Source: Halorarum halobium
Lineage (GTDB): Archaea > Halobacteriota > Halobacteria > Halobacteriales > Haloferacaceae
Direction of reading: 5' to 3'
Length of the DNA: 64,000 nucleotides
NCBI RefSeq assembly: GCF_032116555.1
Contig: NZ_CP134949.1
Span: forward strand, 2,108,001 to 2,172,000
The notes beneath the pieces are model-generated. The model saw only the letters and a list, made by a program, of their open reading frames with translations. It was not told where the DNA came from and searched no databases. Within the stretch, counting starts at the first letter, position 1, and each line of letters begins with the position of its first letter. Shown here piece by piece: positions 24,922-35,035 of the stretch. A program made the position numbers and the translations under genes.

Positions 24922-25902
24922 CTACAGGCGAGCCAGCACCGCGTCGGTCACCTCGTCGGTGCCGGCGTCGCCGCCCAGGTCCGGCGTCCGCGGGCCCTCC
25001 GAGAGCACGACCTCGACCGCCTCGCGGACCGATTCCCCCGCCGCGTCGTACCCGAGCGACTCCAGGAGCATCGCGGCCGAGAGGATCGTCGCCGCGGGGT
25101 TGGCGACGCCCTCGCCGGCGATGTCGGGCGCGGTGCCGTGGACCGGCTCGAACACGCCGCGATCGGGGCCGACGTTCGCCGACGGGAGCAGGCCGAGCCC
25201 GCCGACCAGTCCCGCCGCGAGATCCGAGAGCACGTCCCCGGCGAGGTTCGGACAGACGACGACGTCGAACTGCGCGGGGTCGAGACACACCTTCGTCGCG
25301 AACGCGTCCATCAGCACCTCCTCGGCCGCGACGCCGCGCTCGTCGGCGACGCCGACGACGGCGTCGCGGAACCGGCCGTCCGTCTCGCGCATCACGTTCG
25401 CCTTGTGCGCGACGTGGAACCCGCCCGTCCCGCGCTCGGCGACGAACTCGCAGGCGAACTCGGCCAGCCGTTCGGACGCCGACGTGGTGACGACGCGCGT
25501 CAGCGTCGAGAGGTCCTCCGAAAGTCGGTCCTCGTGGCCCGAATACACGCCCTCGGTGTTCTCGCGGAGGAACACGAGGTCCGTCTCCGGCCGGACCGCG
25601 TCGACGCCGGGGTAGGCCCGCGCGGGCCGCACGTTGACGAACGAGTCAACGGCCTCTCGCAGCGGGAGGATAACGTCAGCCGCGGTCTCGCCGGCCGCGC
25701 CGAACAGCGTCGCGTCCGCGGACGCGACGCGGTCGTACGTCTCCGCCGGCAACGCTTCGCCGGTTTCCTCGGCCACCGCGTCGCCCGCGTCGGCCTCGAC
25801 GAACTCGAACTCGCCGACGTGATCGAGCACACGTCGCGCCGCCGGGACGACCTCCGTCCCGATGCCGTCGCCCGGAATCACGACGATCTCCTCGCCCGCC
25901 AT
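24922..25902 (-). CDS. leuB: 3-isopropylmalate dehydrogenase
   Basis: [45 protein letters not shown]; operon context. Confidence 0.93.
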
Positions 25903-25903
25903 C

Positions 25904-26584
25904 TCAGTCGCTTGCCTCCGGAAGCTGGTCGTCGCACACGTACGGGAGCGACGCCGCGGTCTCGCGGACCGCGCCCGCGTTCGCGCCCATCAGCGCGGTC
26001 GTGTCCCACTCGCCCTCGACGAGCGCGCGCCGCTGGGCCTCGTCCACGGTGGCGTCGACGGTCGTACCGCCGTACGTTACCGTCTCGGCGGCGACGTCGA
26101 CGTCGATCTCGCCGTCGGGATGCTCGTCGATCCAGTCCTGCAGGGCCGTGAGCTCCTCGTGGCTCGCGGTCAGCGTCGGGACGCCGAGCGCGAGGCAGTT
26201 GCCCGCGAAGATCTCCGCGAACGACTCGCCGACGACCGCGTCGATCCCCCAGCGCATCAGCGCCTGCGGGGCGTGCTCGCGCGAGGAGCCGCAGCCGAAG
26301 TTCGCGTTCACCGCGAGCACGCTCGCCTCCCGGAACCGGTCCTCGTTGAACGGGTGATCCTTCTCCTCGTCGTCCTCGTCGAACCGCAGGTCGAAGAACG
26401 CGAACTGTCCGAGGCCGTCGAACGTGACCACCTTCATGAAGCGCGCGGGGATGATCTGGTCGGTGTCGACGTCGTTCCCGCGCACCGGGACGCCGGTGCC
26501 CGAGACGGACGTCACCGTCTCGGCGGGCCCGCCGCCGCCGTCGCCGTCGCTCCGTGGGGCGTCGCCGTTCGCGTTCGAACTCAC
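25904..26584 (-). CDS. leuD: 3-isopropylmalate dehydratase small subunit
   Basis: [34 protein letters not shown] start overlapping the leuC stop. Confidence 0.93.
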
Positions 26585-28008
26585 GCCTCCACCTCCGGAC
26601 GCTCCTCCAGGTCGCGCACGTCGGTCACCTCGCCCGTGACGGCCGCGGCTGCGACCATCCGGGGGTTCATCAGCACGGTGCGGCCGTCCTTCGAGCCCTG
26701 CCGGCCGACGAAGTTCCGATTCGAGGAGGACGCACACGCCTCGTCGCCCTCGAGCTGGTCCTCGTTCATTCCGAGACACATCGAACAGCCCGCGTTGCGC
26801 CACTGGAAGCCGGCCTCGCGGAAGGTGTCGGCCAGGCCCTCCTCCTCGGCGGCCCGCTGGACGCGCTGGCTGCCCGGGACGACGAGCGCCCGGACGTCCT
26901 CGTGGACTTCGCGGCCGCGCACGACCGCGGCGGCCCGCCGCAGGTCCGGCAGGCGCGCGTTCGTACACGAGCCGAGGAACGCCACGTCCACCCGATAGCC
27001 CGCCATCGTGTCGCCGGGGTCGACGCGCATATGTTCCTGTGCGCGTCGCGCGGAGTCCTGCTTGTCCGGGTCGAGATCCTCTGGGGCCGGAATCGGCTCC
27101 GTGATGCCGACGCCCTGGCCCGGCGTCGTCCCCCAGGTGACCGTCGGTTCGAGCGCGTCGCCGTCGATCGTGACGACGTCGTCGTACTCGGCGTCCCCGT
27201 CGGAGGCGACCGACTCCCAGTACGGCTTCAGCCGCTCGAACTCCTCGGGGTCGTCGACGAACGCCTGCGCGTCGGCGAGCCACTCGAAGGTGGTCTCGTC
27301 GGGGTTGACGTAGCCGGCGCGCGCGCCGCCCTCGATCGACATGTTGCAGATGGACATCCGCCCCTCCATGTCGAGCGACTCGACCGCCTCGCCCCCGTAC
27401 TCGTACACGTAGCCGACGCCGCCGTCGGTGCCGAGCTTCCGGATGATCTGGAGGATGACGTCCTTCGCCTCGACGCCCTCGCCGAGTTCGCCCGTCACCT
27501 CGATGCGGCGGACGTCCTTCTTCTCCATGGCGATACAGCCGGTCGCTAGCACGTCCCGGATCTGCGAGGTGCCGATGCCGAACGCCAGCGCGCCGAACGC
27601 GCCGTGGGTCGAGGTGTGCGAGTCGCCACAGACGACGGTCTTTCCTGGCTGGGTCAGGCCCTGCTCGGGGCCGACGACGTGGACGATGCCCTGGTCGCCC
27701 GAGGACGGGTCCGAAAAGTCGATGCCCGCCTCGCGGACGTTCCGCTCCAGCTCGCTCATCATCTCCTCGGCCGCGTCGTCGCCGTAGGGGCGCGATTGGT
27801 CGGCCGTCGGGAGGATGTGGTCCACCGTCGCGTGGGTCAGGCCGGGGTAGGCGACCTCGACGTCGCGCTCGCGGAGCATCCCGAACGCCTGCGGACTCGT
27901 CACCTCGTGGACGAGGTGGAGCCCGACGAACAGCTGGTCCTGCCCGGTCGGCAGCGTCGTCACCCGGTGTCGGTCCCACACCTTGTCGTACAGGGTTCCC
28001 TCGCTCAT
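26581..28008 (-). CDS. leuC: 3-isopropylmalate dehydratase large subunit
   Basis: [56 protein letters not shown]. Confidence 0.96.
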
Positions 28009-28391
28009 CCGTCGGCTCCCCCGTCGCCGGACCCTTCGTCGCCGGACCACTCGTCACTCGACCCTCCGTCGCCGGACCACTCGTCACTCGACCCTCCGTC
28101 GCCTGGCCGTTCGACGCCGCGCGTCCAGACGCGGTTCGTCTCCTCGTAGGGCGGGTCGTGGCTCACGTCCGCGAGGGTCCCGTCGGCCGCCGTCCCGCGC
28201 CCGCCGCCCGCCCCGCCGCGTCCGTCCTCACCCGTCCCGGCCGTCGACGCCGACGAGGTACCGTTCCGCCGGGCTCGTCGCTCCCCGCCGTCGGCCATCG
28301 CCGGCCCGCGGCGGTAGACGTCCCAGAACGTCTCGCTCGTCTCCGGGTGGACGTGGCTCACGTCCGCCAGCGTGTCGCTGCCGTCGGTCAT
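28005..28391 (-). CDS. Hypothetical protein inside the ilv-leu operon (128 aa, internal duplication)
   Basis: ATGA overlaps with both the ilvC stop and the leuC start; duplicated TLADVSH motif. Confidence 0.75.
28031..28103. repeat. 30-bp in-frame tandem repeat (about 2.4 copies)
   Basis: ACCCT(T/C)CGTCGCCGGACCACTCGTCACTCG at 28031 and 28061, partial at 28091; encodes [10 protein letters not shown] units. Confidence 0.9.
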
Positions 28392-29449
28392 TCTCGCATC
28401 CCTACCTTCGATTTGTCGTCGTCCTCGCGCTCCGTGTTCTCGGCGTCGTCCCAGGCGAACAGGCTCCGGAGCTCCGCGCCGACGGCCTCGATGTCGTGGT
28501 TCTTCTCCGCGGTACGCAGCTGCGTGTAGGAGGGACGGCCGGCCTGGTTCTCGGCGATCCACTCGCGGGCGAACGTGCCCTCCTGGACCTCGGCAAGCAC
28601 CTCCTCCATCCTGGCGCGTGCCTCCTCGTTCACCACGTCGTCGCCGCGGGTGAGCCCGCCGTACTCGGCCGTGTCAGACACCGAGTCCCACATGCCGCCG
28701 AGCCCGCCCTCGTACATCAGGTCGACGATGAGTTTCAGCTCGTTCAGGCACTCGAAGTACGCCATCTCGCGGCTGTAGCCGGCGTCGACGAGCGTCTCGT
28801 ACGCCTGCTTCACCAGGGCGGTGACGCCGCCACACAGCACAGCCTGCTCGCCGAACAGGTCCGTCTCGGTCTCCTCGCGGAACGTCGTCTCGATGACGCC
28901 CGCGCGGGTACAGCCGATCGCCTGGGCGTAGGCGAGGCCCTCCTCCCGTGCGCGACCGCTCTCGTCCTGATAGATCGCGAGCAGGCCGGGAGTGCCCTCG
29001 CCCGCCTCGTAGTTGCGGCGGACGAGGTGGCCCGGCGACTTGGGCGCGACCATCGTGACGTCGACGCCCTCGGGGGGCTGGATCTGGTTGTAGTGGATGT
29101 TGAACCCGTGGGCGAACTGGAGCGTGTCGCCCTCGTCGAGTTCCTCCCGGATCGCCTCGAACACGTCCGGCTGGACGGTGTCGGGCACGAGCATCGAGAC
29201 GATGTCGGCCGCGGCGGCCGCCTCGACCGGCGTCGCCACGTTGAGCCCGTCGGCTTCGGCGGCCGCACGCGAAGAGGAGCCCTCGCGCAGACCCACGACC
29301 ACGTCGACCCCGCTGTCCGCGAGGTTCTGGGCGTGGGCGTGGCCCTGGCTGCCGTAGCCGAGCACGGCGACCGTCTTGTTGTCGATGTAGCTTCGGTTCG
29401 CGTCGTCGTCGTAGTATACCGGGGAGTCGAAGGTGTCGTCGTCAGTCAT
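28388..29449 (-). CDS. ilvC: Ketol-acid reductoisomerase
   Basis: [56 protein letters not shown]. Confidence 0.97.
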
Positions 29450-30275
29450 CGTAGTTGGGTGTGGATTCGTCGGTTGTCGTCTCGTCGTCGGTCGGTTCGT
29501 CGGTCGCGGAGCCGCCGGCCGAGTGGCCGGGCTCCTCGCCGGGCGTCGTCGGGGAGTCGCCGCGTTCGAGCGCCGTCTGGCCGGTCCGGGCGATCTCGAT
29601 GATGCCGAACTGCCGGAACGCGTCGACCGCGTCGTCGATCTTCCGCTCGTCGCCCGTGATCTGGACGGTGATGGTTCGCGGCCCGGCGTCGAGCGTCCGG
29701 CCCTCGTACATCTCGGTGATGGCGTGGACCTTGTCCGGCTCGGTTCCGCGGACCTTCAGCAGCACCAGTTCCGCACGCACCGCGTCGGACTCGAGTTCGC
29801 CGACCGCGATGACGGGCGTGAGCTTCAGGAGCTGTTTTTTCGCCTGGTCGATGCCCGGATCCGTCTCCTCGACGACCAGCGTGATTCGGGCGTGTCCCTC
29901 GACGGTCGTCGGGCCGACCGTCAGGCTCTCGATGTTGAACTGCCGCCGGGAGAACAGCCCGGAGACGCGCGAGAGCACGCCGGGTTCGTGTTCGACGAGC
30001 GCGGAGATGACGGCCGTCCGTCGGCGGTGTTCGGCCCCCGCGTCGGGGTCGACCTTGATTCCCTGCGCGTTGCGCCGGGCGGTCGGCTGCGGGCGCTCGT
30101 CGGGCCGGGGGCCGGCCATCCCGCGCCGGGGAACCGGCCCGCCGTCGTCGCTCGGGGTGGCGTGTTCGGCCGCGGGCGCGTCCGCCGGGTGGGCGTCGAA
30201 CGTCGCGCCGCCCGCGTCGCCGCGGCCGGTTCCGTCCGTGGACGCCTCGCTTCCGGTGCCGTCCGCGTCGCTCAT
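29442..30275 (-). CDS. ilvN: Acetolactate synthase small (regulatory) subunit with extended termini
   Basis: [35 protein letters not shown] domain, EIARTG; ATGA overlap with ilvB. Confidence 0.92.
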
Positions 30276-32059
30276 AGCTGGTCCTCCGTGAGCGCGAACT
30301 CCCCGTTCGCGCCGCCGCTCGACACCATCGGGTAGACGTTCTCGCGCGGGTCGACGTGGACGTCGACGACCGAGGGGCCGTCGTACGCCAGCGACTCCGC
30401 GACGACGTCCGCGACCTCGTCGTACTCGTCGACCCGGAAGCCGCGCGCGCCGAACGCCTCGGCGAGCTTGTCGAACTCCGGCATCCAGTCGTACTCCGAG
30501 GCCATGTGCCGGCCCTCGAAGAACGCGTCCTGCCACTGGCGGACCATCCCGATGTACTCGTTGTTGAGCACGACGACCGTGACGTCGAGGTTCTCGCGGA
30601 CGGCGACCGAGAGCTCCTGGATCGTCATCAGGAACGAGCCGTCGCCGTCGAAACAGACCACGTCGCGGTCGTCGTCGGCCGCCAGGCGCGCGCCGATGGC
30701 TCCGGGCAGGCCGTAGCCCATCGTGCCGAGGCCGTGTGAGGAGACGAACGTCCGCGGCTCGGTGTACGTCCAGTACTGGGCGGCCCACATCTGGTGCTGG
30801 CCGACGCCCGTCGTCACGATCGCGTCGTCGTCGGTGGCGGCGTCGTACGCCTCCACGACGAACTGTGGCTTCACCGGTTCGTCCGGGTCGACCGCGTAGT
30901 CCATCGGGTACTGGTCGCGCCAGGTCGTACACTGCTCGCGCCACTCGCCGGCGTCGGGCGAACGGTCCAGAGCCGCGTCGATCTGGTCCAGGACCGTCCC
31001 CGCGTCGCCGACGACCGGGTAGTCCGCCTGGACGTTCTTCGAGATCTCCGCGGGGTCGATGTCGACGTGGACGACGTCCGCGCCGGGCGCGAACGTCTCG
31101 ACGCCGCCGGTCAGGCGGTCGTCGAACCGCGTCCCGACCGCGATCAGGCAGTCGGTGTGGCTGATCGCCATGTTCGCGTAGCCGGTGCCGTGCATGCCCG
31201 CCCACGAGAGACAGAGGTCGTCGTCCTCGGGGAACGAGCCGATTCCCGGCATCGTCGTCACCACGGGAATCCCGTGTTCGCGGGCGAACGCCCGCGCCTC
31301 GTCGGTCGCGTTCCCCTTGATGACGCCGCCGCCGAACAGGCAGAGCGGCTTTTCCGCGCGCGCGATGGTCCGGGCGGCCGCATCGACCGACTCGGGGTCG
31401 GCCTCGGGATCCGGCTTCGAACGCGCCGGGGGTTCGGGCGGCTTCGGCGCGCGATCGGTCTCGCCGAAGGAGACGTCCTTCGGGAGGTCGACGAGCGTCG
31501 GGCCGGGACGACCGGTCTCCGAGAGTGCGAACGCCTCGCCGACGACGTCGCCGACGGTCGTCGAGTCGCTCGCGAAGTAGTTGTGCTTCGTGATGGGCGC
31601 GGTGACGCCGGTCGTGTCGGTCTCCTGGAACGCGTCGGAGCCGACCATGTCGCTGGGCACCTGGCCCGTCAGGGCGAGCATCGCGTCCGAGTCCATCGAG
31701 GCGTCGGCGATGCCGGTGACGAGGTTCGTCGCGCCCGGCCCCGAGGTGGCGAGACAGACGCCGGGCGTGCCGGTCACGACGCCGTACGCGTCGGCGGCGT
31801 GGGCCGCGCCCTGCTCGTGGGCCATGGTCACGTGATCGATGCTGGAACCGTACAGCGCGTCGTAGACGGGCATGATCGCGCCCCCCTGGACGCCGAAGGC
31901 CGTCTCGACGCCCGCGGATTCGAGGGCGGCGACGACGGCTGCCGCGCCGTTTTCGGGGATCGCCGCGGCGGTCGCGGCCCCCGCTTCCCCGGTCGCGTCC
32001 GGGTCGGGGTCGACCTCCTCATCGGTCGCGTCGACGGCGGGTTCGGCTGACTCGCTCAT
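30272..32059 (-). CDS. ilvB: Acetolactate synthase large subunit
   Basis: HEQGAAHAADAY, TSGPGATN, DAFQE, GMHG, RFDDR, GQHQMW, GDGSFLM ThDP motif, GMVRQWQ. Confidence 0.97.
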   Translation of the reverse strand: MSESAEPAVDATDEEVDPDPDATGEAGAATAAAIPENGAAAVVAALESAGVETAFGVQGGAIMPVYDALYGSSIDHVTMAHEQGAAHAADAYGVVTGTPGVCLATSGPGATNLVTGIADASMDSDAMLALTGQVPSDMVGSDAFQETDTTGVTAPITKHNYFASDSTTVGDVVGEAFALSETGRPGPTLVDLPKDVSFGETDRAPKPPEPPARSKPDPEADPESVDAAARTIARAEKPLCLFGGGVIKGNATDEARAFAREHGIPVVTTMPGIGSFPEDDDLCLSWAGMHGTGYANMAISHTDCLIAVGTRFDDRLTGGVETFAPGADVVHVDIDPAEISKNVQADYPVVGDAGTVLDQIDAALDRSPDAGEWREQCTTWRDQYPMDYAVDPDEPVKPQFVVEAYDAATDDDAIVTTGVGQHQMWAAQYWTYTEPRTFVSSHGLGTMGYGLPGAIGARLAADDDRDVVCFDGDGSFLMTIQELSVAVRENLDVTVVVLNNEYIGMVRQWQDAFFEGRHMASEYDWMPEFDKLAEAFGARGFRVDEYDEVADVVAESLAYDGPSVVDVHVDPRENVYPMVSSGGANGEFALTEDQL

Positions 32060-32169
32060 CCGTCCGCTCCATGCTGGTGTCGTGTCATTTCTGGTGTGCT
32101 GGCTGGGTCGCTGTCGGGTGAACTGTCGGGCGTCGATACGGTCGAACCGGGTCGTGAGAACGGTGTGGT

Positions 32170-32191
32170 GTAGGGGTGGCTAGACCCCTAC
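32170..32191 (-). promoter_or_regulatory. Perfect 8-bp hairpin covering the end of the ilvB leader ORF
   Basis: mRNA GUAGGGGU-CUAGCC-ACCCCUAC; the leader UAG stop lies in the loop. Confidence 0.75.
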
Positions 32192-32254
32192 AATGATCGA
32201 GACGGCGGGCGCTACGCCGGGACCGCCGACGCGAGCGACCGGAGCTGTCTTCAT
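32180..32254 (-). CDS. Putative ilvB leader peptide MKTAPVARVGGPGVAPAVSIIVGV (24 aa)
   Basis: ATG 26 nt downstream of TTTTATA; 6 Val + 2 Ile, ending GTC TCG ATC ATT GTA GGG GTC TAG; below ORF-track length. Confidence 0.7.
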   Translation of the reverse strand: MKTAPVARVGGPGVAPAVSIIVGV

Positions 32255-32279
32255 CTCGACCGACCGTATCGGGGCCACG

Positions 32280-32286
32280 TATAAAA
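32280..32286 (-). promoter_or_regulatory. TATA box of the ilvB operon
   Basis: TTTTATA, the only strongly AT-rich element between leuA and ilvB, at -26 to -32 from the leader ATG. Confidence 0.75.
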
Positions 32287-32377
32287 TCCTGTCCCGGACG
32301 GCAACGGTTGCATCCGGGAGACCTGTCGCGGCCGCGATTCACCCGTCGCTGGCCGCGGGTGGCCGACGCGGCGGGCG

Positions 32378-33589
<1,212 letters not shown>

Positions 33590-33644
33590 TGGATACCGAC
33601 GAGTCCTGATTATGGGACATCGACTGGAGCAAGAGCGGAACTCC

Positions 33645-33651
33645 TTGTAAA
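33645..33651 (-). promoter_or_regulatory. TATA-like box of the leuA-family gene
   Basis: TTTACAA at -25 to -31 from the ATG at 33620. Confidence 0.6.
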
Positions 33652-33944
33652 GCGTTGTGGTCGGACAGTTCACCCGATCGGTCGTCCCGTCGACCCCGGA
33701 CGTAACGACCCGAAAACCGCAGGAGGGCGTCGACTATCATCCGGACGTAACACCTTATACAGAATAATACTCTTGTCAGGGTCCGGTTCGTGTTCGTCCA
33801 GTTTTCGGTTCCCCGGGCGCTCGTTTGCGGCCGACGGCCGGTTCCGTGCGGAGCGGATCCGACGAACTCGTCCGACAGGCGTCGACAGACGCGCGTCGGA
33901 CGGAGTACCGAACCCTTTTGCCCGGTCACTCCGAGTGACGCCGT

Positions 33945-34235
33945 ATGACCGACTTCGGCCTCGACCTCCAGGACGCCGAGGAACTGCTGGACGAGGAGGT
34001 CGCGGGCGAGGTCGTGCTCGGGCTCCTCGACGGGAGCACGGATCCGACCGAGTGGATCCGCACGGTCGAGTACGGCAACGTGCTGATCCTCTCGGTCGAG
34101 GGCGACCTGAACGAGCTGGCGGCCGGGTTCGCACGAGAGATCAACGACATGGGCGGGGAGCTCTCGCACTTCCGTGGGTTTCTGATCGTCTCCCCGCCGA
34201 ACGTCCCGATCAACACGGACCGGCTCGGCGACTGA
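33945..34235 (+). CDS. Haloarchaeal protein (DUF5779-like)
   Basis: MTDFGLDLQDAE...GGELSHFRGFLIVSPP; acidic. DUF assignment from recall. Confidence 0.75.
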   Translation: MTDFGLDLQDAEELLDEEVAGEVVLGLLDGSTDPTEWIRTVEYGNVLILSVEGDLNELAAGFAREINDMGGELSHFRGFLIVSPPNVPINTDRLGD

Positions 34236-34267
34236 CGGCGAGCCTCCACCCGTCGACGGCTGGACGG

Positions 34268-35035
34268 TCACGTCCGTCGCGGCGACGCCGGTGAGAGAAC
34301 GAGGTGGTGACCGTCGGGGTCGTACAGTTCGACGCTGCCGTCCTCGCGTTCCAGAATCCGGACCGAGGGCAGGTCGCCGAACGCGCGCTCGGCCGCCGCG
34401 AGCGGCTCCGCGAGCCTGATTCCGAAATCGACGTGGACGCCGCCGCGTGCGCCCGCGAGACCGAGCTGTGGCTCCCAGAGTTCCAGGTCGAACGGGAGGG
34501 GGGCGTCCGGCCGTGAGTCGGCGGCGGCCCGCTCCCCGCCCTCGTCGTCCGGGACCGGCCCGCGAAGTCGCACCCGCCGGCGCTCGATGCCGCGGTCGAC
34601 TTCCACGAAGCCGAGTTCCCGATACGCCCGCTCGGCCGCATCGACGTTCGCCACCTCCAGGACGACCTCGAAGACGCCCACGAGCCCCCGGCCGCCGTCC
34701 GCGAGGCCGGCGATCTCCGGGCAGTGGCCGTCCCCGTCGAACGGGTACACCGAGCGGAACGAGTCGAACGCCACTTCCTCGGCGTCGGGGAAGCGAGCCC
34801 GCCAGGCATCGTACTCCCCGCCGGTCGTCTCGAACGCGAAGTGGACGTGGAGCCCGCCGCGCGGGACCGATTCCGGGCGACGACACACGAGTTCGGTGCC
34901 GCCCACGTCGAACGCGAGCTCCGTTTCGCTCCGCCGTCCGGGGACGAGGCCGAGCCGGTCGGCGTAGAAGCCGGCGGCCCGGTCGAGGTCCTCCACCTCC
35001 AGGGCGAGATGGGCGAGCGCGGGGGTCCGTGTCAC
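34268..35035 (-). CDS. VOC/glyoxalase family protein (two domains)
   Basis: LAHLALEVEDLDRAAGFY...LGL, GGLHVHFAF, GGVHVDFG, YDPDGH; GTG start. Confidence 0.85.
   Translation of the reverse strand: MTRTPALAHLALEVEDLDRAAGFYADRLGLVPGRRSETELAFDVGGTELVCRRPESVPRGGLHVHFAFETTGGEYDAWRARFPDAEEVAFDSFRSVYPFDGDGHCPEIAGLADGGRGLVGVFEVVLEVANVDAAERAYRELGFVEVDRGIERRRVRLRGPVPDDEGGERAAADSRPDAPLPFDLELWEPQLGLAGARGGVHVDFGIRLAEPLAAAERAFGDLPSVRILEREDGSVELYDPDGHHLVLSPASPRRT

Follow-up and report, generated by a model that had tools for sequence, protein, structure and literature searches.

The leader element that precedes ilvB is real and class-wide in haloarchaea. Its parts are a short ORF that closes on Ile-Val(GTA)-Gly(GGG), a hairpin of GGGG and CCCC arms formed around the stop codon, and a G-free tract, and it was present at 106 of the 110 ilvB loci compared. 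We regard it as reasonably probable that this element is a ribosome-operated attenuator, in which a leaderless mini-gene gates the choice between an RNA end about 47 nt past its stop codon and read-through into ilvB-ilvN-ilvC-leuCDB.

At the Halorarum halobium locus all features lie on the minus strand of the window, i.e. the whole stretch of 64,000 nt that was analysed. The leader ORF (32180..32254) reads MKTAPVARVGGPGVAPAVSIIVGV, 24 codons ending in SIIVGV and a stop at 32180, and is the orthologue of Haloferax volcanii HVO_1509. A sequence-only reading of this DNA had proposed that the leader has its own promoter, is rich in Val and Ile codons and ends 120 nt before ilvB. All of this was borne out: the TATA-like box TTTTATA (32280..32286) stands ahead of the ATG at 32254, 8 of the 24 codons are Val or Ile, and the ilvB ATG lies at 32059, 120 nt past the leader stop. 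An AT-rich box is likewise found 22-36 nt upstream of a leader ATG at 99 of 106 loci. The first regulated gene, ilvB (30272..32059), encodes the large subunit of acetolactate synthase (TIGR00118, above cut-off), and the rest of the operon (24922..30275) comprises ilvN, ilvC, an unassigned ORF, leuC, leuD and leuB. The ORF between ilvC and leuC (28005-28390) encodes an acidic product of about 127 aa with short internal repeats and gave no Pfam or NCBIfam match. Profile searches with the leader ORF returned no Pfam, NCBIfam or Rfam match, and Rfam scans of 31000-33500 and 33300-34300 found no family at threshold.

All 151 genomes of the class Halobacteria yielded an ilvB gene. The comparison covers 110 ilvB upstream regions from 108 genomes (the 30 best-scoring loci plus 80 that were fetched); twelve genomes were left out as redundant and the remaining ones of the 151 are also outside this set. 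GTAGGGG read as Val-Gly and then CCCC is present at 106 of these 110 loci, so that both the ORF and the stem are kept in relatives, although the loci are related and the counts overstate their independence. The four misses are L084, with CCC; a second ilvB copy (L100), with Ile-Ile-Gly; L058, where the hairpin is shifted; and L092, which is without the element. Three further genomes gave one leader and two absences. Outside Halobacteria the motif occurs at chance level, in 5 of 174 genomes versus 8 of 174 for the reversed pattern. The second ilvB copies L096 and L100 keep variant leaders, ending Phe-Val-Gly-Ala and Ile-Ile-Gly-Ala.

The 106 loci were picked by the pattern GTN-GGGG, and therefore the G-run is fixed by construction; the third base of the Val codon was left free. 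It is nevertheless GTA in 106 of 106 cases and never GTC, which would preserve the residue in both frames. In a crude set of H. halobium ORFs, GTA makes up 2.5% of the Val codons, GTC 66%, and ATT 6.9% of the Ile codons; ATYGTAGGGG occurs a single time in the 3.68-Mb genome. Ile precedes this Val at 102 of 106 loci, as ATT in 80 and ATC in 22, and in H. halobium the control codons are ATC-ATT-GTA (Ile-Ile-Val, 32189..32197). Near-invariance is confined to a single Ile and a single Val, and no conserved Leu codon was seen in the 106 ilvB leaders. The Val/Ile richness that had been proposed stands as to the count, while sensing would rest mainly on one Ile-Val codon pair. TnaC is an arrest peptide that stalls the ribosome at the stop codon when a free amino acid binds. 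One could imagine that the nascent peptide I-V-G-x acts in the same way, all the more as the conserved residues lie at a near-fixed distance from the stop; we hold this for very improbable, given that the synonymous codons themselves are fixed (GTA 106/106, GGG 106/106) and that the residues upstream of the Ile vary widely.

The hairpin of the H. halobium leader (32169..32192) has a 9-bp stem running from 32192 to 32169 with the loop CUAGCC and a predicted energy of −14.7 kcal/mol. Folding thereby confirmed the earlier proposal that the leader stop UAG sits in the loop. Its z-score is −3.47 in a 41-nt window chosen around the hairpin, while the whole 200-nt leader folds no better than shuffled sequences (z only −0.13), and the case for the element consequently rests on conservation. 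Over the 106 loci the stop codon lies between the hairpin arms in 101, the remaining five having an in-frame TAG 12 nt later, and the pairing probability of the core exceeds 0.5 in 103. A covarying stem had also been anticipated; the stem is indeed kept, but covariation is slight because its core is invariant. The inner pair is C-G in 70 loci, U-A in 7, U-G in 5, G-C in 1 and unpaired in 23. RNAalifold run on an alignment of 63 sequences retained just a 3-bp core with no compensatory pair, a poor result due to loop lengths that misalign, and the per-locus pair count was used instead.

The hairpin is followed by a G-depleted C/U/A tract (32154..32172). Over the 106 loci the 13 nt past the C-run contain 3% G versus 35% in the leader body, and 88 have a pyrimidine run of at least 5 in the tract. 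The first AUG past the leader stop is at least 56 nt away at 104 of 106 loci, mostly 62-80 nt. As for the claim that the spacer has no U-tract, it holds in H. halobium, where the window contains 0 terminator-like sites with a hairpin directly followed by a U-tract, but not across loci: TTT follows the hairpin within 50 nt at 63 of 106 loci and within 22 nt at 28, and is missing from the 50 nt at 43, H. halobium among them. A second candidate motif, G[CT]A[CT]C[GC], was present at 66 of 106 loci as compared with 42 for the following 60 nt, a signal too weak to support a claim.

Published data for H. volcanii show where such a transcript begins and where it can end. The leader peptide of this species is HVO_1509, annotated as 'uncharacterized'. 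The start-site data of Babski 2016 (PMC4983044) place a TSS 3 nt upstream of its ATG, and they list no TSS in 1376900-1377199; a TATA sequence lies at −28 from the leader TSS. Transcription therefore starts at the leader and not close to the ilvB ATG. A 3′ end in the spacer between leader and ilvB, as one would look for in an attenuator, is also on record: two algorithms of one study, Berkemer 2020 (PMC7237163), report an RNA 3′ end at 1377114/1377115, which maps to a TTTTC motif, 47 nt past the leader stop and 96 nt upstream of ilvB. Together the two ends define a leader RNA of 152 nt. The 3′ end fits premature termination; it can instead be a processing product. By homology, the corresponding zone in H. 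halobium, which has no U-tract, is predicted at 32128..32138 (stop plus about 47 nt). Conservation across loci is of the coding type and speaks for translation of the leader, whereas table 5A of Hadjeras 2023 (PMC10117724) records no detection of HVO_1509 in either Ribo-seq or MS, and the supplement of Gelsinger 2020 gave no match. The sequence-only reading had allowed for control of either read-through or ilvB initiation. A start at the leader and a 3′ end in the spacer favour the former, so that this interpretation is supported in part, its anatomy, conservation, TSS and 3′ end having held.

In the ribosome-gated scheme that we prefer, plentiful Ile and Val would let the ribosome finish the leader and leave, and the hairpin would close on naked RNA. 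The polymerase would then cross the AUG-free, G-poor stretch, where the RNA would be ended; aCPSF1/FttA is the most plausible factor. A shortage of Ile- or Val-tRNA would make the ribosome dwell on AUU/GUA and hold the G-run, keeping the hairpin open, and termination would fail through occupancy, without an alternative helix. A gene of the aCPSF1/FttA family lies just past the right end of the window, about 32 kb from the leader (G000:C1:2172564-2174459, minus strand). The factor is described as a U-selective nuclease, and ribosome exclusion has been put forward as a hypothesis for it (PMC11616081; part of a review on termination by aCPSF1/FttA, PMC13675443, was also consulted). Predicted folding of the 106 loci revealed no antiterminator, which counts against the scheme: at just one locus does the end zone have more pairing with the ribosome stalled at Ile than with it at the stop. 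With imposed ribosome footprints the freed C-run stays unpaired (0.85 unpaired in the stalled state and 0.05 in naked RNA), and the tract goes from 0.61 unpaired in naked RNA to 0.83. Stalling thus opens the tract, the opposite of what a simple 'exposed loading site' model needs. Together with the absence of TTT past the hairpin at 43 loci, this makes the link from ribosome to termination, which is probably occupancy-gated and carried out by aCPSF1/FttA, the weakest step of the scheme. A model in which upstream and downstream segments form a duplex was unsupported by locus folding.

The same design recurs ahead of a second biosynthetic gene. When the genome was scanned, untargeted, for short ORFs that have a TATA box ahead of them and carry a G-run, a stop and a C-run, three matches emerged, namely the ilvB leader, an Arg-rich leader before argG (G000:C1:3147039, minus strand) with the hairpin-and-tract design, and one that was unconvincing. 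Under a strict TATA filter, argG leaders of this type were found at 22 of 30 loci. They mostly end CGA-CGA-(CCG)-GG, stop, CCC and a G-poor tail, and their stems vary in sequence while the arms stay complementary. With Ile-Val before ilvB and Arg before argG, the codons follow the pathway. This bears on the idea that the ORF is incidental and that UAUUGUAGGGG, the hairpin and the tract are what a protein or small-molecule-binding RNA element recognizes. GTAGGGG is invariant at the nucleotide level, and the lack of detection of the leader by Ribo-seq or MS (PMC10117724, table 5A) would suit such an element; against it, leaders of many lengths preserve frame, start and stop, third positions take up the variation, back-up stops are present and Arg codons are used instead ahead of argG, so that we find it quite improbable. 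A looser genome scan returned 20 of 151 candidates, and among these none was convincing by eye beyond ilvB and argG. A leader ending GRKPKRA and a stop at G000:C1:1831778 (minus strand) has a 3′ side without a G-free tract and hence a different design.

Like the classical attenuators of the trpL/ilvL type, the haloarchaeal leader places a short ORF first on the mRNA of a biosynthetic operon, uses control codons that match the product of the pathway (Ile-Val for ilvB, Arg for argG) and has, in the published H. volcanii tables of one study, an RNA 3′ end between leader and first gene. The H. halobium window has no hairpin with an immediate U-tract, and predicted folding of the 106 loci gave no antiterminator helix on ribosome stalling; on these two features the leader falls outside the classical class, while being alike in outline. 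It shares with factor-dependent attenuation of the Rho/FttA type an unstructured, G-poor tract past the leader stop and a genome that encodes the factor. In E. coli tnaC, a ribosome positioned close to the leader stop gates access of the termination factor Rho to the tract downstream of it, which is rich in C and poor in G. The haloarchaeal arrangement would work similarly, but with biosynthetic polarity, codon-level constraint and an archaeal host, and with a candidate factor, aCPSF1/FttA, that is a nuclease described as U-selective (PMC11616081). The closest resemblance in layout is to M. tuberculosis ilvB1 (PMC13236596) and the Corynebacterium ilvB-II motif (PMC10272879), where a short ORF with branched-chain codons heads the ilvBNC operon and a short leader RNA ends before ilvB; GUA is also a regulatory codon in M. 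tuberculosis ilvB1 (PMC13236596). As these sources describe them, the actinobacterial attenuators use mutually exclusive terminator and antiterminator helices and a U-tract, whereas we found no antiterminator in the haloarchaeal leader, where the stop is enclosed by a single hairpin some 35-40 nt ahead of the 3′ end and a further reading frame overlaps (see below). Our literature search, which covered few subscription journals, turned up neither a leader-peptide attenuator from archaea nor a paper that names HVO_1509. If the scheme is correct, ribosome-mediated amino-acid attenuation, a type of control known from bacteria, would also operate in archaea. HVO_1509 would acquire a function and offer a natural, tractable locus for the competition between ribosome and aCPSF1/FttA on nascent RNA that was hypothesized in PMC11616081.

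Between the end zone and ilvB lies a second short ORF, MTRHQHGADG (32056..32088), whose stop overlaps the ilvB start as ATGA; an equivalent is found at 79 of the 104 loci with an assignable start. On read-through RNA, ribosomes would load at the first AUG beyond the end zone and would be handed on to ilvB by re-initiation at ATGA. The conserved hand-off, together with the demonstration of ATGA/TGATG termination-reinitiation coupling in H. volcanii (PMC6728339) and the weak conservation of the U-tract, could also mean that the leader senses Ile/Val but controls translation, i.e. ribosome loading at the second ORF or at ilvB, the +47 end then being a decay product of untranslated RNA. We consider this unlikely. 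There is no covarying anti-SD pairing, tract/SD duplexes scoring −8.19 within loci versus −8.56 across loci, so that a leader segment pairing specifically with its own SD, as in a translational attenuator, was not found; the hairpin lies at least 60 nt from the nearest downstream AUG in most loci, and the relay is mostly absent from argG leaders (1 of 22).

Attenuation at the leader may be combined with a signal from upstream. The adjoining leuA gene and two overlapping frames were not part of the sequence-only reading. A bridge ORF of 98 codons (32085..32381) connects the leuA stop with the start of the second ORF; it is in the −1 frame relative to the leader and has an ATGA overlap at both ends. 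An ATG at the leuA stop is present at 92 of 105 loci, in 91 of them in the leader's −1 frame; a crude control of gene pairs gave 7 of 197 as compared with these 91 of 105. The frame is kept in 41 of 42 length classes and passes the hairpin at all 91 loci, and 10 of the 13 loci without an ATG at the leuA stop have ATG, GTG or TTG nearby in the bridge frame. The 91 bridges end by ATGA on ilvB (64), within 8 nt of the ilvB start (11), by relay via the second ORF (8), or in neither or an unassignable way (8). Both the bridge and the second ORF start and end in overlaps like those of the known coupling (PMC6728339), but the bridge frames are unconserved in sequence and length (73-182 aa) and overlie the promoter and the leader. 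A bridge of this kind also bears on the notion that ribosomes, when starved, shift out of the leader into the frame of ilvB or that of the bridge. It has in its favour that ilvB is in the +1 frame at 78 of 104 loci, that the −1 frame is open to ilvB at 72 of 104 and that leuA itself appears to use a slip; however, the bias in ilvB frame arises because the bridge has an upstream ATG, the +1 frame has a TAG at GTAG in every locus and is then open in just 56 of 104, and inspection found no re-pairing codon for a −1 slip at the Ile or Val. Slippage from the leader, the reading to which we give least credence, was discarded since no consistent frame is kept at ilvB loci or in argG spacers.

The leuA gene (32378..33577, isopropylmalate-synthase family) lacks an in-frame start codon within 90 nt of the conserved N-terminus. 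It is preceded by an out-of-frame leader, CGAGTTCTTCCAGGG (33546..33620), with a candidate +1 slip site GTT-CTT-C at 33575-33569. Of 30 leuA loci fetched, 27 were parsed; an out-of-frame ATG ahead of an invariant GTT-CTT-C is present in all 27, and 21 have no in-frame start within 90 nt. Leader and invariant motif, both read from the sequence, suggest a +1 slip in leuA. Pfeiffer and Dyall-Smith (PMC8305020) had already raised the start-codon problem of HVO_1510 (leuA2), the same gene that lies upstream of the haloarchaeal leader, with its out-of-frame ATG, slippage and possible leucine control; the searched text and supplement of that paper do not mention HVO_1509, HVO_1508, ilvB or attenuation. 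Ribosomes that finish leuA on its longer transcript would continue in the bridge frame and occupy the end zone. The bridge may thereby carry a leucine signal via leuA's own slip site, adding a leucine input if translation of leuA depends on its Leu-codon slip, and the start-codon problem of leuA2 would then be tied to control of the whole operon. More tentatively, we can envisage a general haloarchaeal leader design without antiterminator, consisting of rare cognate codons, a G-run, stop, C-run and G-free tract, in which ribosome dwell gates a nuclease-type termination; the ilv-leu operon would be an OR gate, sensing Ile/Val at the leader and Leu by the leuA frameshift and a bridge ORF free of sequence constraint. 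This wider proposal we would rate as possible but somewhat doubtful.

A few loci depart from the common arrangement. In two genomes of family f2 (G003 and G026; loci L173 and L174) a longer leuA abuts ilvB directly by ATGA and there is no leader, which is possibly the older arrangement. In genome G146 (L171, about 1030-1435) leuA and the ilv leader have been lost while the leuA leader and its slip site are kept, and the shifted open frame ends GTGA on ilvB.
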